Positions 24,189 through 34,591 of a DNA stretch of 46,592 nt are shown piece by piece. Both the position numbers and the translations under genes were made by a program. The notes beneath the pieces are model-generated. The model was not told the DNA's origin and did no database searches. It was given only the letters and a program-made list of their open reading frames with translations. Position 1 is the stretch's first letter. Each line of letters begins with the position of its first letter. The DNA comes from Opitutia bacterium UBA3151 (GTDB taxonomy: Bacteria > Verrucomicrobiota > Verrucomicrobiia > Opitutales > Seribacteraceae), in assembly GCA_002364975.1 (NCBI GenBank), contig DEYT01000031.1:1-46592 (forward strand), read 5' to 3'.

Positions 24189-24266
24189 GGCGATAGTAGC
24201 TCAGTTGGTTAGAGCACTGGTTTGTGGTACCAGGGGTCGCGGGTTCGAATCCCGTCTTTCGCCCCA
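24189..24266 (+). tRNA. tRNA-His (GUG)
   Basis: Cloverleaf with G-1:C73, D-arm GCTCAGTTGGTTAGAGC, anticodon arm CTGGT-TTGTGGT-ACCAG, T-arm GCGGG-TTCGAAT-CCCGT, encoded CCA; one U:U mismatch in the acceptor stem. Confidence 0.97.
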
Positions 24267-24641
24267 CTTTGTTCCTCATGAAAAAATGTGAAGTGAGCTG
24301 CAATCCCTCTTAAATAAAAGGAACTGGAGGAATTCATATTTATAAGTTATTTTTTCTTGAGTTTTTACACTACTTGCAACAACTACACCCTTTTTGGCAT
24401 ATTTGGGCAAAGTGACAGAAAAAAAAGGGTGGAGGGAGTCTGCTTACATCCTCAGGCCGTATCCTACTATCGATTTATCCCCGGGAAAAAATTTCGACAA
24501 TGGCAAAAAATGAGGATTTTTTGCTCAAATTAACTGTAACTTGTAAAGCTATTTTCCGATCAAAATGCCGTAAATGTGCTATGACACATATGACATTGTG
24601 TAAGGTGGCTAACAAAATTGCCAAGCCCTTATTCTGCTCGG

Positions 24642-24833
24642 ATGAGCAAAAATACAGAAAAATCAACATATACGGACAAAGAGTTAGTCGCCTTGATTCC
24701 GACGAAGAGACAACCTGGTGAATCGAAAAGAGTGTGGTCTACACGAATCGCCAATCAGTTCTTCGAGGGATTGCTAAGGCATTACGAGATTCACGGGAAT
24801 TTGAAGCAACCGAGGCCTGAGAGGAGGGAGTGA
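24642..24833 (+). CDS. Small hypothetical protein (63 aa)
   Basis: ATG-started ORF MSKNTEKSTYTDKELVALIP...; protein-like composition; no recognisable motif. Confidence 0.4.
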   Translation: MSKNTEKSTYTDKELVALIPTKRQPGESKRVWSTRIANQFFEGLLRHYEIHGNLKQPRPERRE

Positions 24834-25391
24834 TTGGAGCGAGTTTGGCTGTAGGCAGTTGATAACGTTACGGGATCTACTTGCAAGAAGTTTCGGGATA
24901 TATTACTAATTTATTAACGAGTTTGAGGGACGAAGAACTTATTGAAAACTATAGTTTTTCAAATATTATTTTATTATCCTTATTTTATCATTGAAACTTT
25001 TATTTTATAATACGATATGATTATGAAATGAAACTTATTTTTGATTCAAATATTTGTAGATTTGCTAATCGAAATTATTTCAATTTTAAAATTAGAGTGG
25101 CATGCGGAGTAAGTAAAAACTGGGATACAGCTTTTCTACTTATTCTCGACTTGCTGGATTTTTCAAAGAAGTTGAGAATATGGTTTTCGCCTATCATCGA
25201 GAAAATAAAAAGAGAACAACCAAATGGATATTAAATATGCCCAAAACTTTCAGTGAAAAATCATAGAAAGGCCAGTCATCAAATTCACCTTTTTGGATTT
25301 TGGATAAAAGTTCAATTACAGTCCGCGACAAAACCGATTCCCCCTAGTAAAAGCAATTATTTTAAAAGTGAACCTCCAACAATAAAGCCAA

Positions 25392-26510
25392 ATGATATGT
25401 CCAAAATGTGATTCTGTAACTAAATACAGAGACGCGTTTTCCAATTTAAAACTGGAATGTTCTTCCTGTAGTTATGTATATGCATTGGACCCAAAACAGA
25501 TGGGCTTTTCAGACCGACGCGTATGGAAAGTGGCTGAAAAACTTTCCAAAGGCGGGCGTTACTTTACTGAGCAACAACTTGCATGTGCCTGTCTTTCAAA
25601 GAGTGAAAGAAAAATTACCACGGGAACGCTCATTGGAGCAATCTGTGGATTGATTGCTTCATTATTGTTAACATTCAATGGAATCCCTATCCATGAATCG
25701 ATTATTATCGGAGTGGTGATAGGGCTTATTATCGGAGTATGCCTTACCAATTCTGGAGAAAAAGCCAAGCTTTGGACGGGAGTTCAGACCTATTGCTATA
25801 AAAAAGGTCACCAGTTTCTAATCACCCCTAAAAATGCCGAAGCAATCATTGGAAGGTTGGAAAAGAAAAACAAACTTACCTTTCAGGATTTTAATCCTGA
25901 TAAAGCCTTGATTGTGGATGACTTGGAATTCGTAGCACTATTATTACTTAACAACTTTCACAGAGACAGTAATTGTCTGATCCTCAGTGTGAATCATAAA
26001 AGTGGCCCTTTTTATGAATATTTCCTAAAACGCCAGCAATCCGAAAATAAACTACTTGTTTTTGCAGTGCATGACGGAGGTGCAGAGGAGGAGTTGATGG
26101 TTTCCAGAATCCAGAAAGACCCCAAATGGATAGGATGCGAAGAAATTACAGACCTTGGTTTGAGCAGAGAAACATTAACTAACTATAAAAATGGCACTTG
26201 GATAAATGAGGGAACGGGGTCTGTGCAGACCCACTCTCCCAAAAAGATAGATGAAAAATATCAAGGGTCCTGGCTCTTTCCGGTCGACTGCATTCCACCT
26301 GAAAAACTTAATCTATCTTTGAATGCCTGTATGGTAGGTGGATTTGAAATGCTGTCGCCACAAATGTTTGGGGCCATCGGCATGGCACCATCGACAGCTT
26401 CAAACAACACTGCTGGCGGCGATGGTTCATATTATGGCAATAGTGGCAGCGGTGCATCTTTTTCTTCATCAGATTATGGTGGCGGTGCAGGCTTTGATGA
26501 CTTCGGGTGA
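25392..26510 (+). CDS. Hypothetical membrane protein: N-terminal Zn ribbon, TM hairpin, TOPRIM-like alpha/beta domain, Gly/Ser-rich tail
   Basis: CPKC...CSSC; two TM helices; ALIVDD..., LVFAVHDGG and ITDLGL resemble TOPRIM-like elements (tentative); tail GGDGSYYGNSGSGASFSSSDYGGGAGFDDFG. Confidence 0.7.
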   Translation: MICPKCDSVTKYRDAFSNLKLECSSCSYVYALDPKQMGFSDRRVWKVAEKLSKGGRYFTEQQLACACLSKSERKITTGTLIGAICGLIASLLLTFNGIPIHESIIIGVVIGLIIGVCLTNSGEKAKLWTGVQTYCYKKGHQFLITPKNAEAIIGRLEKKNKLTFQDFNPDKALIVDDLEFVALLLLNNFHRDSNCLILSVNHKSGPFYEYFLKRQQSENKLLVFAVHDGGAEEELMVSRIQKDPKWIGCEEITDLGLSRETLTNYKNGTWINEGTGSVQTHSPKKIDEKYQGSWLFPVDCIPPEKLNLSLNACMVGGFEMLSPQMFGAIGMAPSTASNNTAGGDGSYYGNSGSGASFSSSDYGGGAGFDDFG

Positions 26511-26554
26511 ATTTTTCTCAATTTCGATATTCTTAACCCAAGAAAAATAAGGAA

Positions 26555-28237
26555 ATGTTTGGATTTGCTGGTGTCATTTCAAAAAAGCAACTGGAGAATC
26601 GAATCCGGCAGCAGAGTCAATTTTGCCTGGACGAATTCAAGTTTTATTCAAGCTTTAAGATAATTTGCGGTGAAAAGCCTGTAAATGATCAGAAATTTTT
26701 ATTTGCCGATGGTTCCTTACTACAAATCTTAGGACTTTTTTTTTCAGACTTTACCCAGTCTGAATCACTTCATCATTTCGAGGAAGTTGCAGACGGTGCT
26801 TTCACAGCTTTAGCGGTAACTCCCAATGAATTTCGCATTTATGCAGATCCATGCGGATGGCGATCAGTATATTTTCGGGAAGAAAATGGCTTCTTATATC
26901 TCGCATCTAACATAAGATATTTCCGGGAGTATTTTGGCTTACTCCTGGAACCCGCTACTGAAAGATCGATCGATTTCCTATGCACCAGTTTTATTCCCGG
27001 TCAAGAGACCCTAACAAGAAATGTTTTTCAACTACCTATGGGTCATGTACTCGAATGGAAGAGCGAAAATAATTCGACCATCAGAGATTACTGCAAGTAT
27101 GACACTATCCCCAAAGTGCAAAATACTAGTGCCGAATCAGCAAAAGATCTACACTCTATTTGCCTCGAAAACACTGAAAGAATAAAAAAATCCAGTGGAA
27201 AAAGCGAATGCACAGTTTTCTTGAGTGGTGGATTGGACAGCACTTGTGCCCTAGCTCTAGCGATTGAAATATTCGGACTAAAAAACATAAAAACTATTTC
27301 AGTCCATTTCGGTGGCCATTTGCCCAATGAAAATGAATACATTGATGAAGCCGTTAAATACTTTGGTTGCAGTCATCAATATCTTGAAATTTCCCCTGAT
27401 TCATTCCTCTCGGAAATGGAGACAATCTATACATGGATTGATGATCCCATTGGCGACCCGGTGGTAATGCCTAATTATATGATGAACCGTGTCATTGATC
27501 CTAAAGAACAACTTGTGATTACTGGTGAGGGAGGAGATCCCTGTTTTGGTGGTCCAAAAAATGTATTCATGACCAACTCAATGGAATTCAGTGGTTTATA
27601 CGAAAATAGTGATAACAACGAGTTTCTTGCTACTTGCTACCTTGAGAGCTTCAAGAGAGCTTATGATGATGCCGCTCAGATTAGCCGATTCAATGAAGAG
27701 TCTTTCGAAAGTAGATTAAATGAACTTCAATCCAACCTTAATTTACACCTTACAAATCAAAATTGGGATAGCTTCCTCGATCGTTTGTTATTTGCAAATA
27801 AATACCTCAAATCTAATTCCCTGATCTTACCAAAAGTACAAAAGACCACGCAGCCATTTTCCCGGTATTCATTATCTCCACTTTTTTCGAGAAAAGTCAT
27901 CGAATTCTGTGCCCGAACTCCAATCGAAATAAAATATCCGAAACTTCAGGAGAAACATATTCTTAAACGTGCTTTCCTAGAAAAAATTCCTCAATCTATA
28001 ATCGACAGAGAAAAGAGTGGCATGAGAGTCCCCATTCGCTTCTGGCAAGGTAACAAAATAAAGGCGTATAACCGAAAAATACTTTTGCGTGAGAATAAAA
28101 AATTAACTTCGAAATTTTTTAACATAAAAGAAGTTAAAAATCTTTTAAAGCATCCGCGTTCTAGGCAAGGTCTTAAAACATGGATGCTTACCACTTTTAT
28201 TTTAACTGCTAAAAATTTATATGAGCCCGAAAGTTGA
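26555..28237 (+). CDS. Asparagine synthetase B-like amide ligase lacking the N-terminal catalytic Cys
   Basis: MFGFAG in place of MCGIAG; DGAF and DPCGWRSVY (Ntn domain remnants); FLSGGLDS PP-loop; TGEGGDPCFGG; EKHILK; REKSGM. Confidence 0.88.
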   Translation: MFGFAGVISKKQLENRIRQQSQFCLDEFKFYSSFKIICGEKPVNDQKFLFADGSLLQILGLFFSDFTQSESLHHFEEVADGAFTALAVTPNEFRIYADPCGWRSVYFREENGFLYLASNIRYFREYFGLLLEPATERSIDFLCTSFIPGQETLTRNVFQLPMGHVLEWKSENNSTIRDYCKYDTIPKVQNTSAESAKDLHSICLENTERIKKSSGKSECTVFLSGGLDSTCALALAIEIFGLKNIKTISVHFGGHLPNENEYIDEAVKYFGCSHQYLEISPDSFLSEMETIYTWIDDPIGDPVVMPNYMMNRVIDPKEQLVITGEGGDPCFGGPKNVFMTNSMEFSGLYENSDNNEFLATCYLESFKRAYDDAAQISRFNEESFESRLNELQSNLNLHLTNQNWDSFLDRLLFANKYLKSNSLILPKVQKTTQPFSRYSLSPLFSRKVIEFCARTPIEIKYPKLQEKHILKRAFLEKIPQSIIDREKSGMRVPIRFWQGNKIKAYNRKILLRENKKLTSKFFNIKEVKNLLKHPRSRQGLKTWMLTTFILTAKNLYEPES

Positions 28238-28931
28238 TTTTTTTTACAAAGAAGAGTTTTCATCCTTTTTCAATGATCTGCACCGCGGAAATTTTGGTCG
28301 AGCATGCCCTGATCAATCAGACAAACCGCATGATTTCCCCGGACGAGGTGGTACAGTTTTTTGCGTCGCGACGGGTAATCAAACCGTCAGGATTACAAAT
28401 GAGGTATCCAAGTATGAAATGCAGCCTGGTATGTACGGGGCAATTCAGACGCCCGCCAAAATAGAAGGCGGAATGTTTTGGTATGTTTTTGTGGAGGGGT
28501 ATGAATGCCTAAATGGAATCGGGGGTCCCCTTGAGCATACTGGTAGGCTGCGCTATATTGACGGTTGCACGGACTCTCTGATTCTACCACCTGTAATCAA
28601 AGGAGACCCATGCCTTAATCTTCTCTACTTCCCCCCTTCCACGGATCAGACTTTTCACACGCACCCAAGTTGTCGAATTGGCCTAGTCGTTTCCGGTCAC
28701 GGTATCTGCCATGAAAAGTCTGGAGAAACTATTCTTGAAGAAGGTTTAGCCTTTTATCTTCCCAAGGATGCCATTCACCGCTTCGAGACAAAAAGTGAAT
28801 CTCTTCGGGTTGTTGCCTTCCACCCGGATAGCGACTTTGGACCCGAGCACGATTTCCACCCAATGATCAACAAGACCATGGTGGATGGAACCTCAGCACG
28901 CCATATCGAAGCCATTCGCACCAGTTTATGA
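28221..28931 (+). CDS. Cupin-domain protein (metal-binding, probable bicupin)
   Basis: QTFHTHPS.RIGLVVSGHG and LEEGLAFYLPKDAIHRF cupin motifs; overlaps the upstream gene by 17 nt. Confidence 0.82.
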   Translation: MSPKVDFFYKEEFSSFFNDLHRGNFGRACPDQSDKPHDFPGRGGTVFCVATGNQTVRITNEVSKYEMQPGMYGAIQTPAKIEGGMFWYVFVEGYECLNGIGGPLEHTGRLRYIDGCTDSLILPPVIKGDPCLNLLYFPPSTDQTFHTHPSCRIGLVVSGHGICHEKSGETILEEGLAFYLPKDAIHRFETKSESLRVVAFHPDSDFGPEHDFHPMINKTMVDGTSARHIEAIRTSL

Positions 28932-29986
28932 ATAAGCAATTTCTTTTTCTTAATAAGTTTGCCGCTATTAATCGGTCTGAGATTTTTGACTTAAGTTCCG
29001 ACAATTATGTCAATCTCGTGAAATTTTTCGAAACTGGAGCAATCGACAGAACGCACACTTTAGTTTCTGGTTTCAAATACAATGTTATAGATCCTATTCC
29101 CGAGATTACATCCTCTCGCCCTCCCATTGATGAGCTTATGCTGGAAACTGCTCGGGAGATTCTGAAGCTTGCAGAGAAAAAAAAGCAAAAAATTCTTGTT
29201 CTATGGAGCGGAGGAATCGACTCGACTGCAGCATTGCTAGCACTTCTTGAAATATGTGGTAAGAATTCAACTGACATCATTAGCCTTGGTTCTTCCCATG
29301 GATCATTCGTGGAATTTCCAGAATTCGGGAAGTACCTAATGGAACAAAACATTGAAATTCTCCCGATGGTTCATCCAGTATCGAAATACCTTCCGCAGGA
29401 TTATATCGTTGTTACTGGAGAGCATGGTGACCAGTTGTTCGGCAGTGACAAGATGTTACCACTTGTCGACTCCGGTTTGGGAGACCTGCCATACAAAAAA
29501 TATTTGCCGTTCTTCATTGCCGAAAAGCTCGGCAATATTAAACAAGTATCGCACTTGGTGGAATACCTTGAGGCAATCATTGAAAAATGCCCATTTACCA
29601 TCACAGATATCTGTCAATGTCTCTGGTGGTTTAACTTCGTATTAAAATGGCAGCAAGTTTCATTGCGCATTCCGGTATGGTCGGGAAAAAATGTGAAACA
29701 GGTTTTTGATCAATGCGAACATTTTTACAGAAACGAAAAATTCCAGCTTTGGTCTCTTGCACGGGAGCGTAAGAATCCCCACACAGTGGATAGATATAAA
29801 GCAGAACTGAAAGAATTTATTAATCAAAGATTTGTATGCGAAAAATATTTTCTTCGTAAAAGAAAAGAAATAAGCCTGCGTCCAAGAGCCGAGAAAAAAT
29901 GGTGGGAATTAGCAAGACATCGGTGGAGCTTTGTTATGGATGAGACATGGAATCTCGAGAAACAGATAATCCCTCACTACCTGTAA
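28928..29986 (+). CDS. Stand-alone AsnB synthetase-like N-type ATP pyrophosphatase (PP-loop)
   Basis: VLWSGGIDST and VVTGEHGDQLFGS; no Ntn domain; ATGA overlap with the cupin gene. Confidence 0.8.
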   Translation: MNKQFLFLNKFAAINRSEIFDLSSDNYVNLVKFFETGAIDRTHTLVSGFKYNVIDPIPEITSSRPPIDELMLETAREILKLAEKKKQKILVLWSGGIDSTAALLALLEICGKNSTDIISLGSSHGSFVEFPEFGKYLMEQNIEILPMVHPVSKYLPQDYIVVTGEHGDQLFGSDKMLPLVDSGLGDLPYKKYLPFFIAEKLGNIKQVSHLVEYLEAIIEKCPFTITDICQCLWWFNFVLKWQQVSLRIPVWSGKNVKQVFDQCEHFYRNEKFQLWSLARERKNPHTVDRYKAELKEFINQRFVCEKYFLRKRKEISLRPRAEKKWWELARHRWSFVMDETWNLEKQIIPHYL

Positions 29987-29988
29987 AA

Positions 29989-30704
29989 ATGAATGCATTG
30001 AAAGAGCCTGACCTATTTTCACCAGTTATCGAAAGACTTTTAGCCACTGTGGTAATATTGAGCGTCATCTTTTATGTTCTGGAGGTAGAATATGGGGGCT
30101 CTGCCCATAGTCTAGAAGGGCACACCTTTTGGTTGTGGATGGAATGTGTGGTTGCAGGCATCCTAACAATAGAAATATCTCGCCCGGTGGAAAAAAGGAG
30201 GAAAAGAGTATCCCTACAGTCGGTTAGGAGTGATAGATCTAGCATCCGTAATCCCCTTTTGGCTGGGTTTCATTGTTCCCCCTGCATGCTTGGGATTGAT
30301 TCGATCCATGCGTGTCCTGCGTTTACTAAAACTCTACCGGCATAGCGGGGTAATGCGAGTATTTGTTCATGCATTTCTCCTATCTAGAAAGCACTTAATG
30401 GGGATGTTTCTGATCGTTTTTATTTTGGTTTATTTTGGTGCAGTGGGAATTCGTGAAATCGAAAGGGATGATCAACCGGATGTTTTTGGCAGTTTATTCA
30501 ATTCTATCTGGTGGACCATTGTCACACTGATGTCGGTGGGTTATGGACACAGTTCCAGTAACTCCGATTGGAAAAGGATTTGCCCAGGTGGATATGGTAT
30601 TTTGCTTGGGATTGACTGCAGCATTTATTGGGATTGTGGGGAGCAATGTGTATACACAGGTACAGGAAATCAAAGACGAGAAAGATGATAACAACCAAGA
30701 GTAA
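29989..30704 (+). pseudogene. 6-TM voltage-gated K+ channel, two frameshifts
   Basis: S4 LIRSMRVLRLLKLYRH; pore WWTIVTLMSVGYG; removing one A at 30173-30175 restores TIEYLARW; adding 2 nt near 30547 restores GYGDTVPVTPIGK through to TAA at 30702-30704. Confidence 0.88.
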
Positions 30705-30803
30705 GTTTGTCACTGCAACCCCAGGATTCATTTGCAGAAAAATAATCTTTGCGAAAACTCAGCAGCCTGAACAACCAGAGATTTTTTCCTCCCATAGGTT
30801 ATC

Positions 30804-32102
30804 ATGACAAATTTTCGCATTTATGCCCTGTCCACCTTATTTGGCATCCTGTTCGTCATCTCGTCATACTTTTTATTTTTTAACGAAGAGAAAAAAAGCT
30901 GGATCATAGGTGGTGGTGAAGAAGGTGGATTGTATGATGCCAGCGTATCTGCCATTTCAAAAGTGCTTAAAAATAAAAATGGCTGGAATGTGGAGGTTCG
31001 CAGAACCTCAGGTAGCGTTGAAAACATGAAAGGCCTGAATGAAGGGAGTCTCGATCTCTGCTTGCTTCAGAATGATTTACCTGGCAGCGAAAAAATCAGG
31101 TCAATTGCGACAATATATGAGGAAGTCCTGCACATCATCGTAAAAGATAAAAACGCTTCTCTTGCCAGCCTGGTTGGTAAAAACATTTCAACCGGGAAAA
31201 GTGGAGGTGGCACCTACTCTCTTGTTTCAGCAATCTTTCCGAGCTTAGGTATAAAAGAAGGCTCAGTGACCTGGAAAAAAGAAAGTCTCAAGGAGGGCAT
31301 TAGTAACCTTCGCCAAGGAAAGCGTAAAGCTGTTTGTATTGTCACCAGTATTGGTAATCAAATGGTGGCATCTGCTTTGGCTGGGGGCGACCTCCATTTG
31401 CTAGAAATTGGAGAAGGCATGTCAAGTGCGGCAACCCGCTCTTATCCATTTACTCAATCCTCATTTATTCCACAGAATTCTTACCCGGTGAGCCCGGGAA
31501 TTGCTATCCCCAAAGCCAAAATTACCACCGTTGGTACATGTGTTGTACTCGCCTGCCACGATGAGTTGGATGAAAGCGACACCTACAAGCTTGCCAGTGC
31601 GATTCATGAAGGAAGAGTTTCCTTAACCAGACAAATTCCTGTTCTTTCAACTATTTCGCACATTGGTGATAATCAAAAAATACAATTTCCCGTGCATGAG
31701 GGAGCTAGAAAATATCTCCTGAGGGATGAACCAAATTTTCTTCAGAATTGGGCGGAACCGCTTGCTCTTATTCTTTCTGCTATTGTCATTGCATGGGCAG
31801 TCGGAGTGGCATTACGCGAATTCCTAGTCCAGCGAAGAAAAGATAGTCTTGATGTTTATTTTGAGCAACTCGGACTCCTCATTACAGAACTCGTTGATCT
31901 CAAGGACAGTAACCGATTACAGGCTATCAAAATCGAAATTCATAAAATCAGGCAGGAAACCACCCAAAAATTAGTTGCCGAACAACTCCTTGCCAACGAA
32001 TCCTTCATTATTTTCCAGAATCAGCTATTGACTGCTCAACGAATGGCCAATGATTGTACTTCTTTTGCTGAAAAGAAAGATTCCCAGTCTCTTGAATCCT
32101 GA
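30804..32102 (+). CDS. TAXI-family TRAP solute-binding protein with C-terminal TM and helical domain
   Basis: GGEEGGLY, TSGSVENM, DLCLLQND, IYEEVLHIIV, STGKSGGGT, FPVHEGARKY; then a TM helix and a helical tail. Confidence 0.85.
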   Translation: MTNFRIYALSTLFGILFVISSYFLFFNEEKKSWIIGGGEEGGLYDASVSAISKVLKNKNGWNVEVRRTSGSVENMKGLNEGSLDLCLLQNDLPGSEKIRSIATIYEEVLHIIVKDKNASLASLVGKNISTGKSGGGTYSLVSAIFPSLGIKEGSVTWKKESLKEGISNLRQGKRKAVCIVTSIGNQMVASALAGGDLHLLEIGEGMSSAATRSYPFTQSSFIPQNSYPVSPGIAIPKAKITTVGTCVVLACHDELDESDTYKLASAIHEGRVSLTRQIPVLSTISHIGDNQKIQFPVHEGARKYLLRDEPNFLQNWAEPLALILSAIVIAWAVGVALREFLVQRRKDSLDVYFEQLGLLITELVDLKDSNRLQAIKIEIHKIRQETTQKLVAEQLLANESFIIFQNQLLTAQRMANDCTSFAEKKDSQSLES

Positions 32103-32104
32103 TT

Positions 32105-32710
32105 GTGAATTTCATACCTACATCCAGAAATCAATCATGGAGCATATTGCCGTTAGTCCTATGCTTTCTTGCATTGAGTTGTAGTACCGATCAAATACCT
32201 GAGACTCTTTCCGCAAACCGGGAAGTATCAAAAAACGAACGCGAGTATCAGGCAGTATGGGGAATTGATGGAATTGATTTCCTGGAAGCCACTCTGGTAT
32301 ACCACGGGAAAACGCCAGATTCGCCTTCTGAAAACTTGGATTCTTTCGATCAACAAAAGCACAACGCTGACTTTTACAGTTACACGCTGCGCAACCTCAC
32401 TGATCTTCCCATCGAGATTTCATCTGCCCATTTTTTTTCCGAAAAAGGAAAGCGTGAAATCAACAAAAAGAGCTCATACATTACGAAAAAATGGGGAACG
32501 AACCTGCTTAAACCTGGACAAACAATAACCAGGCGAAATTTATGGGTTTGGGCAAATACCAGTCATAACCGTTTAATCATCACCTATCAGGCAGAGTTTC
32601 TTAATTCTCCAAATAAATCATCCATTGAAAGACTAGCTGAAAAAGTGGAGGAAAGCAGTGGAGCAAGTCTTATGTTTCCGTTTCAGGTGATACTTAAATT
32701 TTTAAGATAA
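32105..32710 (+). CDS. Hypothetical lipoprotein
   Basis: Lipobox LALSC; Ig-like beta pattern YSYTLRNLTDLPIEI...LKPGQT; starts 2 nt after the TAXI stop. Confidence 0.65.
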   Translation: MNFIPTSRNQSWSILPLVLCFLALSCSTDQIPETLSANREVSKNEREYQAVWGIDGIDFLEATLVYHGKTPDSPSENLDSFDQQKHNADFYSYTLRNLTDLPIEISSAHFFSEKGKREINKKSSYITKKWGTNLLKPGQTITRRNLWVWANTSHNRLIITYQAEFLNSPNKSSIERLAEKVEESSGASLMFPFQVILKFLR

Positions 32711-32835
32711 ATGAGAGGGGACTCTTAACCAATCTAAATACTCATCCTGCCTGAAACTAATGACAATAGTTTCACCATTCCCATCACATAGAGACCCTAG
32801 GAGGTACTAATAATTCTGTAAGGTACTATTTCACC

Positions 32836-32855
32836 CCCCTCTTTCTCCCCACTTT
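32836..32855 (+). repeat. Degenerate copy of the tRNA-His 3' end (att-like direct repeat)
   Basis: CCCCTCTTTCTCCCCACTTT (32836-32855) vs CCCGTCTTTCGCCCCACTTT (24251-24270): 18 of 20 identical, intergenic. Confidence 0.65.
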
Positions 32856-33067
32856 TTTTATCAAGTTGGTAATTGATTCTTCGTAAATGAATCTTAATTT
32901 TCGCACCCAAGGTAAAAAACTAAAAAATAGGGAACTTGCAAGCAACCGCAAATTTAGCAACTTACACACTGAAAACCTTCTCAAGATGAGAAATTTTAAA
33001 ATCCCCATCAAAGATAGGGGAACACCCATTTATTAGTGTAATTAATTTTTATCAAGAATCTGCTTCA

Positions 33068-33101
33068 TTGACTACTTTGTACTTGATCTTCTAGGATCAA
33101 G
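33068..33101 (+). promoter_or_regulatory. Sigma70-like promoter with overlapping inverted repeat, probably leaderless
   Basis: TTGACT (33068-33073), 18-nt spacer, TAGGAT (33092-33097), ATG 6 nt later; CTTGATC/GATCAAG inverted repeat at 33082-33101. Confidence 0.5.
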
Positions 33102-33103
33102 AG

Positions 33104-33823
33104 ATGCAGGTCTTCGTTCATATCGGCGGGAAGAACTACGGCCCTTATTCCGTCGAGCAACTACGCTCCTTTGTCAAAGCAGGCAATTGTAAGGAAGATC
33201 AACTAGCCTGCTACGACGGTAAGAATTGGGTTTGTATTCGTGAGGTTCCTGGTTTTGCAGTTAAGCTAAACAAGCAAGAGGTAAAACCGCGAACCGCTTC
33301 CAAAGCGGTACCCAAAAAAACTAAGAAGCAACGATTCAAGAAGTTGGTATTTGTTTGCCTGTCAGTAACAGTTGCTCTGTCGGTGGTGATTCTATCTGTT
33401 GCTTGGGCAACGGGTTATCTACTTGAGGAGAAAATGGAAGAAGGGATGCTCTCCAAAGAGAACCTCTTCATCCTTACCCCCGATCAGATCGCAGAGGTGT
33501 ATGACGGGGACACCTTCAAAATCAACTTACCCAAGCAAGTTCCGATATTTGGAGATAAACTTTCTATTCGTCTTGCGGGTGTCGATACCCCGGAAATGAA
33601 GGGTACGAGCGACGAGGTGAGGGCATTGGCGAAACAGGCCCGGGAACTGACTGAAAAGGCACTTCAGGGTGCGGATCAGATTGAACTCCGGAATCCTCAG
33701 CGAGGGAAATATTTCCGCATTGTAAGCGAGGTATGGATCGATGGAGAATCCCTTGCCGATATGCTAAAGGAAAAGGACTTGGCCAAGGATTATGATGGGG
33801 ACGGTCCTAGACCCGAGTGGTGA
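33104..33823 (+). CDS. GYF_2 (DUF4339)-TM-thermonuclease (SNase) fusion
   Basis: GGKNYGPYSVEQLR..V..G....W (GYF_2); TM helix; VYDGDT, IRLAGVDTPE and GKYFRI (SNase). Confidence 0.85.
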   Translation: MQVFVHIGGKNYGPYSVEQLRSFVKAGNCKEDQLACYDGKNWVCIREVPGFAVKLNKQEVKPRTASKAVPKKTKKQRFKKLVFVCLSVTVALSVVILSVAWATGYLLEEKMEEGMLSKENLFILTPDQIAEVYDGDTFKINLPKQVPIFGDKLSIRLAGVDTPEMKGTSDEVRALAKQARELTEKALQGADQIELRNPQRGKYFRIVSEVWIDGESLADMLKEKDLAKDYDGDGPRPEW

Positions 33824-33909
33824 AGGAATAAAATTTTTCAATCTTCATATCCCGAAAAACTAATTTGCGAATTTAAGATTCAATTCGCCTAAGGAAAACC
33901 CAAACTAAT

Positions 33910-33938
33910 TTGACCTTGGGAAAAACCTTGTTTAAAGT
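33910..33938 (+). promoter_or_regulatory. Sigma70-like promoter, probably leaderless
   Basis: TTGACC (33910-33915), 17-nt spacer, TAAAGT (33933-33938), ATG at 33944. Confidence 0.5.
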
Positions 33939-33943
33939 AAAAT

Positions 33944-34459
33944 ATGGTTTTAAGAGTCACCCTTTACCTGATTACTTCATTTATTTTGGGATGTGCAGGA
34001 GATTTAGACGATCAAACCAAAAAGCAGGATTTAAATGAAGATGAGACCGTTGATTCCAATGATTCGCTTCGGGTCACTCCGCAAGTGAAAGTTGAAGTGG
34101 ACAAACTAATTCCTACAAAAGCTCCCGGGATACCAAAAGAAGAGTTGGAATCTCTTCAAGCAGCCAACCCAAAGCTACTGCCCAAATCGGAGGCTGTGAT
34201 ATCACCCGAGGTTCAGCCTAATTCCAATGAGCCGAAGAATACCCTGGAAGAAGATGATGAGCTTGTGGCCGAGCCAGCTCCAGTGGTTGAGAAATTAGTT
34301 GAATTTGAAGTGTCGCCCACTGCTAATCCAACGCCGGCTAAAAATACGAACGAATTATTTTATCCAAGTGCCTCTTCCGAGTCCCCTTCACGAGTGTCTG
34401 GCAATAGAGCCCGTCTCCATCGGGGAATGCCTGCTCTGAACCTTAGTTATTTGAAGTGA
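33944..34459 (+). CDS. Hypothetical Pro/Glu-rich lipoprotein
   Basis: Lipobox FILGC, then low-complexity, probably disordered sequence. Confidence 0.6.
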   Translation: MVLRVTLYLITSFILGCAGDLDDQTKKQDLNEDETVDSNDSLRVTPQVKVEVDKLIPTKAPGIPKEELESLQAANPKLLPKSEAVISPEVQPNSNEPKNTLEEDDELVAEPAPVVEKLVEFEVSPTANPTPAKNTNELFYPSASSESPSRVSGNRARLHRGMPALNLSYLK

Positions 34460-34591
34460 AATTGATCTGATCGTTTGACCTTTTGATAATATTAAAATGG
34501 TTATGGGTTTAAATTTTTTTACCGGATCTGTATCAAAGGAGTCTGCTAGAACAGGGTAAAACCAAAATACTTATGATCAAAATCAGGAGGT

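Follow-up and report, generated by a model that had tools for sequence, protein, structure and literature searches.

The subject of this article is a compact run of four genes on a 46,592-nucleotide stretch of DNA (hereafter the window), contig DEYT01000031.1 of assembly GCA_002364975.1, which comes from Opitutia bacterium UBA3151, a member of the Verrucomicrobiota. The genes form an operon that is real, intact and mobile. Its enzymes belong to known superfamilies; their arrangement is new. The first gene encodes a membrane protein (P1) with a conserved Phe–Gly (FG) end, the second and fourth encode ligases related to the asparagine synthetase AsnB (P2 and P4), and the third encodes a cupin (P3). 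We suspect, tentatively, that the end of P1 is what the ligases act upon. The open reading frames (ORFs) lie in the window as follows.

25392–26510, + strand: P1, an ORF of 372 aa
26555–28237, + strand: P2, an ORF of 560 aa
28221–28931, + strand: P3, the cupin, an ORF of 236 aa
28928–29986, + strand: P4, an ORF of 352 aa

An earlier model-made reading of the letters alone (the sequence-only reading) had described four co-oriented genes with overlaps of 17 nt and then ATGA, and the ORF coordinates bear this out: 44 nt separate P1 from P2, P2 and P3 share 17 nt, and P3 and P4 share ATGA. The whole unit occupies 4.6 kb with every ORF intact and the catalytic motifs of the ligases kept. Promoter and terminator scans of the locus gave results at chance level only. 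Three marine RNA runs gave 12 short pieces of contig that map, at depth 2–6, on P1, P2 and P3, across the junction of P3 with P4, and close behind the tRNA gene upstream; since DNA carry-over is possible in such pieces, they are no evidence of expression.

The AlphaFold model of P1 (predicted local distance difference test, pLDDT, 76) has a Zn ribbon (CxxC...CxxC), a helical subdomain, a hairpin of two hydrophobic helices (at about residues 80–98 and 100–118), an alpha/beta domain and a tail that is disordered. Not every P1 member has the hairpin, a strong hydrophobic segment being absent from 4/20. Ribbon, membrane segment and flexible tail had all been seen in the sequence-only reading; what it missed was a Toprim domain and the conserved C-terminal FG. 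The Gly/Ser/Asp tail (residues 330–372) is modeled with low confidence (pLDDT <50) and ends DDFG-COOH. FG forms the last two residues in 18 of the 20 aligned members, despite an overall identity of about 20%. The two exceptions are a row cut by its contig end and a tail-less paralogue from an array whose other four copies end FG. Among ORFs of the genome the background frequency of this ending is 3/1592; among fetched P1 homologues it is 28/40. Judged on the aligned members, selection is shown to act on the last two residues of P1. At one locus (L077:238-6020), five tandem P1 paralogues stand ahead of a single AsnB of P2's type and a cupin, and four of the five end DGFG.

The region of P1 from about 165 to 320 has the Toprim fold of topoisomerase VI-A (Topo VI-A) and Spo11. 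The best structural match is 1d3y (Z 8.5, root-mean-square deviation 4.4, 148 aligned), a modest Z score with which three other results agree; 2zbk (Z 8.1), 2q2e (Z 7.3) and 8b7f (MksG; Z 6.1) follow. Foldseek also put 1d3y first (E 0.0097), the P1 family profile found it in the PDB at E 3.5e-4, and PF21180 matches 12/20 members at E<=1, the best at 8.6e-7. The metal-binding residues tell a different story from the fold. The Toprim Glu is Asp in 14/20 members (D176 in P1), and the DxD site has become D228-G-G230, with Gly, Ser or Thr at its third position in 20/20, so that the second Asp is lost throughout. P1 therefore has the Toprim fold of Topo VI-A, Spo11 and JetD without their Glu and DxD metal motif, and with the acidic motif eroded in this way DNA cleavage by P1 seems unlikely. 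The fold match is limited to residues 152–320; outside it, a candidate position for the catalytic Tyr of a 5Y-CAP domain, C65, is Tyr in 7/20 members and Cys in 7/20. P1 has no entry in the ESM Atlas.

P2 matches Pfam Asn_synthase (E 1.7e-40) and has a full-length AsnB fold, and its N terminus reads MFGF, lacking the Cys1 of glutaminases; none of its close relatives, which we call a-type, has Cys there. The sequence-only reading was right to call it a Cys-less AsnB homologue. The a-type signature is GEGGDPxFGGPKN, and the ATP-site residues S224, D228, E325, D328, K467 and K487 are invariant in 12/12 a-type rows. Both P2 and P4 have the marks of PF00733: an SGGxDS PP-loop, GExxD, two conserved Lys and the synthetase fold. 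Where AsnB has the substrate loop D-E-x-F-G-G-Y, P2 has D-P-C-F-G-G-P, and both Pro are invariant in 12/12. The positions of E352 and Y357 of E. coli AS-B, matched by spacing, thus hold Pro/Pro in P2 and Gln/Asp in P4; we take Y357 to be the Tyr of the Glu-Tyr dyad next to the ATP site. Given these replacements, free aspartate is an unlikely substrate for either protein. The best solved relative of P2 is TsnB9 (7ylz; E 1.2e-43 with the family profile); phmmer with P2 alone found no PDB match. A weak PAPS_reduct match (E 0.049) reflects the shared PP-loop.

Could P2 simply make asparagine from ammonia, with its neighbors there by accident? In favor of this, P2 is the sole full-length PF00733 match in the genome. 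Against this stand the Pro/Pro in the aspartate-binding loop, a TIGR01536 score of 132.6 bits where the cut-off is 267, a strict linkage to P1 and congener searches that did not turn up the module. We regard this explanation as very improbable. In none of its AsnB-type matches does P2 reach the curated NCBIfam cut-off.

P4 has no Pfam match below E 0.02. Its model (pLDDT 93) is that of an AsnB synthetase domain standing alone, without the N-terminal nucleophile (Ntn) domain. Among five AsnB-family structures, with Z from 14.1 to 10.7, it scores 14.1 against TsnB9, 12.8 against human ASNS, 12.0 against beta-lactam synthetase and 10.7 against E. coli AS-B, and residues S94, D98, D168, K291 and K313 are kept in 90–94 of 94 relatives. 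Fold and residues uphold the earlier description of a second PP-loop ligase of AsnB type, which had overlooked the missing Ntn domain. The family has 1148 representatives, occurs on at least 520 viral stretches, is mostly phage-borne and carries no name; it includes some long members that look eukaryote-like by eye. A bacterial subfamily (15 representatives; P0177-P0200) has an acidic Gly tail of its own at the C terminus, a conserved LW motif (LW[DE]xL/V) and, mostly, an N-terminal hydrophobic or membrane helix. It is possible that in this subfamily ligase and substrate are one self-contained protein. In the cultured Pseudomonas phage Cygsa01 (L247, PP179332.1), a P4-like gene annotated 'MnmA' follows the baseplate genes, with a second 'MnmA' adjoining; the label on the P4-like gene is probably a misannotation, and the gene is open to experiment.

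P3 is the cupin with a His triad that the sequence-only reading had seen (Cupin_2, E 3.4e-9; H146, H148 and H186). It is built from a degenerate N-terminal half and a His-rich C-terminal barrel and is predicted to bind metal. The family has at least 2879 homologues, and ten residues (Y112, C116, Q143, H146, H148, R152, H186, H201, H213 and M215) are invariant in 203/203 locus cupins. We found no close solved relative (best E 5.6e-6). Our census covers 80 metagenome loci found with the cupin, many of them near-copies: 12 have P1, AsnB and P4; 10 have P1 and AsnB; 3 have P1 only; 3 have AsnB and P4; 7 have AsnB only; 4 have P4 only; 18 have an IbrA-like gene; and 23 have none of these. In viral DNA an IbrA-like phosphoadenosine phosphosulfate (PAPS) reductase gene accompanies the cupin in 76/80 cupin loci, often near terminase-like genes, and 39/79 viral loci found with P4 carry a P3-family cupin, mostly adjoining P4 and often near tail-fibre-like genes. 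Three different families of PP-loop enzyme thus have this one portable cupin as a partner. A descent of P3 from the P4-linked cupins of phages, which we considered, was unsupported in a quick tree.

The company the cupin and P4 keep elsewhere is varied. L034:3873-11956 is a cluster that resembles those for peptides that are made by the ribosome and modified after translation (RiPPs), with an MNIO (MbnB/TglH family), P4, cupin and a C39-peptidase ABC exporter. In Bdellovibrionota-type genomes (L308-L311, L001, L002) P4, the cupin or both sit, by eye, in clusters of the MBOAT, acyl-carrier, AMP-ligase or desaturase kind, and a helper of about 200 aa often lies 5' of P4, as in phages. A Burkholderia plasmid (L004:9827-13004) has the cupin beside proteins like prolyl-tRNA synthetase (ProRS) and GTP cyclohydrolase II. 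At L037, L044 and L048 the cupin is beside one or two copies of a third AsnB subfamily, with a short Ntn domain, and a small conserved ORF.

How much of the operon travels together? The order P1-P2-P3-P4 is found in the 12/80 loci that hold all four genes, and 4 more are cut by contig ends, so the co-occurrence elsewhere on which the sequence-only reading depended is there. Collapsed at 85% identity, the four-gene form amounts to five lineages, which make one clade together with one contig-cut locus (support 90, quick tree); its P4 proteins also make one clade. The most divergent locus (L021) retains 26%, 38%, 50% and 46% identity for P1 to P4. Other orders occur: cupin-P1-AsnB (L035, L053, G279), cupin-AsnB(b)-P1-AsnB(a) (L043, L066, L078) and P1x5-AsnB-cupin (L077). 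The a-type AsnB motif is present in 22/28 P1 loci, the other six being short or cut contigs, and the identities of P1 and P2 covary over 7 loci (rho 0.83, kin not being independent). P4 and the second, b-type AsnB never occur together in the 28 P1 loci; as the P4 loci are one clade, this exclusion counts as one event and yields no statistic.

Two named plasmids widen the picture. They hold the top two of 525 plasmid AsnB matches ranked by E-value, and a P1 homologue occurs on these two plasmids only. The plasmid of Gloeothece verrucosa has twin AsnB genes, a P1 ending QSFG, a pyridoxal phosphate (PLP) decarboxylase in the cupin's usual place and a methyltransferase. The Streptomyces plasmid has three tail-less P1-like ORFs (one by tblastn, two by eye), a different cupin, an ORF like aldehyde dehydrogenase (partly by eye) and a separate protein of 179 aa ending DDFG directly upstream of the a-type AsnB. 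We conclude that the constant pair is the FG-tailed protein with a-type AsnB, and that two further members can be swapped: the second ligase (b-type or P4) and the small-molecule enzyme (cupin or decarboxylase). Mosaic in its make-up, the locus combines a P1 and AsnB core with a cupin and P4 pair that phages keep near tail genes. The modification system proposed in the sequence-only reading stands as a conserved, undescribed modification module with two AsnB-type ligases; it had left the class open, and the module is not one fixed four-gene unit. The breadth across named taxa rests on the two plasmids and on protein labels.

What might the module do? P2 has no glutaminase Cys and P4 no glutaminase domain, so the nucleophile must come from outside. 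Enzymes that are asparagine synthetase-like (AS-like) adenylate the C termini of ribosomal peptides: FzmA does so to give a hydrazide (PMC13622209), and TsrC and ScdTA (amide) and PesC (nitrile) modify the same carboxylate (PMC13060819). The simplest reading is accordingly amidation or conjugation of P1's terminal Gly. We propose, as a plausible idea that falls short of probable, that P2 and P4 adenylate and amidate (or conjugate) the C-terminal carboxylate of P1 with a nucleophile supplied by the cupin in place of glutamine. The cupin, or elsewhere the PLP decarboxylase or the different cupin, would make or release an amine; P2, the invariable partner of P1, would adenylate the tail; P4, in the optional slot for a second ligase, would add a second amide or build the amine donor; and P1's eroded Toprim domain and ribbon would serve in binding or sensing, not DNA cleavage. 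That P1 might be the substrate or scaffold had been suggested before, and its conserved FG end and strict pairing with AsnB support the suggestion.

The proposed amidation of P1, which draws on sequence, models and analogy, has several points to answer. PesC depends on a Glu-Tyr dyad (its Y368F variant is inactive; PMC13060819). On the spacing-based mapping this dyad is replaced in P2 and P4, so that P2 might be a pseudo-enzyme or act in another way; beta-lactam synthetase is likewise without the dyad. Every precedent cited has kept a route from a glutamine or glutamyl donor; P2 and P4 have none. The FG end might be a signal for docking or for a protease instead of a substrate, and 12/40 fetched homologues do without it (8 from a tail-less paralogue subfamily, 4 seemingly truncated or chimeric). 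In the cupin tree the four-gene clade lies apart from the other cupins found with P1 and AsnB, and the cupin also occurs in nonribosomal peptide synthetase (NRPS), AMP-ligase, MBOAT and IbrAB clusters that have no FG protein.

This last point leads to the main rival, a small-molecule pathway in which cupin and ligases make an amide-containing metabolite or decorate the cell surface, and P1 is only a scaffold in the membrane, with an FG tail to which the enzymes dock. Relatives of the cupin adjoin NRPS, AMP-binding, aminotransferase and oxidoreductase genes. In 3/301 genomes of another phylum, P4 is found by eye in clusters of MBOAT, acyl-carrier or desaturase type, and of the four P4 loci concerned two have the cupin and none has P1. 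TsnB9, the closest solved relative, acts on a small acid with a nucleophile made by a partner (PMC13418202). The operon itself, on the other hand, has no transporter, carrier protein or precursor-supply gene, and a free-standing DDFG protein turns up where P1 has lost its tail, though docking could explain that too. We consider this pathway somewhat unlikely, the most serious of the competitors.

The terminal Gly invites a comparison with ubiquitin or Pup: adenylated, it might be joined to a lysine of another host or phage protein, tethering that protein to the membrane. An invariant terminal Gly on a flexible linker and ligases with no internal source of ammonia would suit such a scheme, as would the P4 relatives near phage tail-fibre-like genes. 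The AsnB fold is able to form isopeptide bonds, as it does in lasso cyclases, and this too counts in its favor. Yet the operon encodes no target and no deconjugating protease, and partners such as the cupin and the decarboxylase suggest that the nucleophile is small. We think protein conjugation quite improbable.

An option raised in the sequence-only reading, modification of nucleic acid, drew no positive support. Here P1's ribbon and Toprim domain would bind nucleic acid, DNA or RNA, at the membrane, with the ligases modifying bases or, in an anti-phage role, a phage component. The Topo VI-A-like fold of P1 fits this, as do a patchy island at a tRNA gene, the IbrA-like neighbors of viral cupins and the cupin-IbrA-ParB cassette of phages, which is suspected of a like role. 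Set against these are the loss of the Toprim residues described above and a search of viral contigs in which no P1 relative was found. PADLOC (2023 library) recognized no known defense class, its matches being weak ones to QueC and PDC-M25A (E 0.006–0.012), and the neighbors are transport genes, not defense genes. We think this explanation unlikely.

The claim that the module sits on an island was confirmed by an insertion after tRNA-His that is missing from congeners.

24190–24266, + strand: tRNA-His (ARAGORN), the left boundary of the island
24267–34591, no strand: variable insertion of about 10.3 kb between tRNA-His and phnE, defined by synteny with congeners

Besides the four-gene module, the insertion contains a TAXI-like protein, a channel gene that is broken, and unknowns; the flanking DNA carries, by eye, the housekeeping genes ychF, dnaE, lysS, trpA and miaA, which together with the labels of homologues indicate a marine Verrucomicrobiota genome. 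In 17/20 congener stretches the tRNA is followed by phnE/phnD/kdtA-trpA-miaA within 12 kb without module genes, the remaining 3 being uninformative or short. In the closest relative (G458; 92% DNA identity at ychF) the tRNA runs straight into the homologue of 33104–33823. The island is defined by synteny only, because the GC content of the four genes, overall and at third codon positions (GC3), lies inside the genome's range (10th–88th percentile) and no attachment (att) repeat was found in the genome. By eye, no integrase was recognized among the window's ORFs. The cupin was found in 0/36 congeners, many of them incomplete. Across the host phylum, cupin and P1 occur in the same 2/401 genomes and P4 in 1/401, and a scan of GTDB with one cupin sequence gave 2 loci. 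The channel gene (29947–30688, +), of the potassium-channel-like ion transport kind, has two frameshifts. An independent contig of 99.6% identity (L006) has the same breaks and relatives L009-L015 carry an unbroken copy, which marks it as a genuine pseudogene. A protein-like ORF of 63 codons (24642–24833, +) lies in the 1.1 kb that separate tRNA-His from P1; only a 42-nt piece of it was matched, in 1/43 congeners.

No named pathway had been recognized for this combination of genes, and we found none in the literature searched, which takes in few subscription journals. The operon resembles the AS-like C-terminal modifiers and TsnB9 but falls outside AsnB proper, lasso clusters, active Topo VI-A, IbrAB and the PADLOC systems. 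With TsrC, ScdTA, PesC (PMC13060819) and FzmA (PMC13622209), P2 shares the PF00733 fold and ATP site, and there as here a linked protein with a conserved C terminus is the candidate substrate. P1 differs in being a 372-aa membrane Toprim protein and not a short leader-core peptide; Cys1 and the dyad are missing from P2, none of the four proteins matched a peptidase or RiPP recognition element (RRE) family, no exporter was recognized, and the upstream short ORFs bear, by eye, no likeness to precursors. TsnB9, beta-lactam synthetase (1jgt) and CarA (1q15), the best sequence or fold matches of P2 and P4, are repurposed AsnB enzymes with a nucleophile other than ammonia; they act on small molecules in antibiotic clusters, and P4 lacks their N-terminal domain. 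Against the lasso cyclase profile NF033535, P2 scores 60.7 bits (cut-off 525), far from a lasso biosynthetic gene cluster.

The remaining likenesses are partial. P1 shares with Topo VI-A, Spo11 and JetD (MksG) a fold and residual sequence likeness (PF21180; 1d3y, 2zbk, 8b7f); it differs in its eroded motif, inserted hairpin, ribbon and FG tail, and no Topo VI-B or SMC partner was recognized in the island. Phages have an IbrA/IbrB (YbdN/YbdM-like)-cupin cassette and a P4-cupin pair, both uncharacterized; P3's cupin family is in both and the P4 family in the latter, and neither has P1 or a-type AsnB. A helper of about 200 aa often precedes P4 in phages and is absent here. None of our four proteins matched DUF3440 or ParB, so this is no IbrAB-cupin cassette; in the part of PMC4490671 drawn on here, IbrA is merely annotated. 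The nearest named ESM Atlas cluster outside P3's own family is that of the (S)-ureidoglycine aminohydrolase-type bicupins (score 0.88, a lead only). A cupin that releases ammonia would suit the amidation model; P3 differs from these bicupins in having Arg at the motif-1 Glu position and the invariant Cys116, His201 and His213.

Taken at its boldest, the operon could stand for a new class of protein modification: a dead membrane protein derived from topoisomerase VI, with a ubiquitin-like terminal Gly, activated and conjugated by glutamine-independent AsnB ligases, in which one cupin family is the interchangeable module that supplies the nucleophile to PP-loop enzymes of three kinds (AsnB, stand-alone synthetase and IbrA-type), in phages as well as bacteria. 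We hold this full version to be rather unlikely. Were it true, the operon would offer a tractable system by which the orphan cassettes of phages are explained as well, and AS-like C-terminal chemistry, recently demonstrated with short peptides of the RiPP class, would reach a whole membrane protein and a donor other than glutamine. One operon that lends itself to expression and to mass spectrometry joins an orphan cupin and two orphan families of ligase to a candidate substrate whose end (DDFG) is sharply defined. Both families, cupin and P4, abound in phages next to tail and terminase-like genes and have no known chemistry, so that a single result here would inform hundreds of viral loci.

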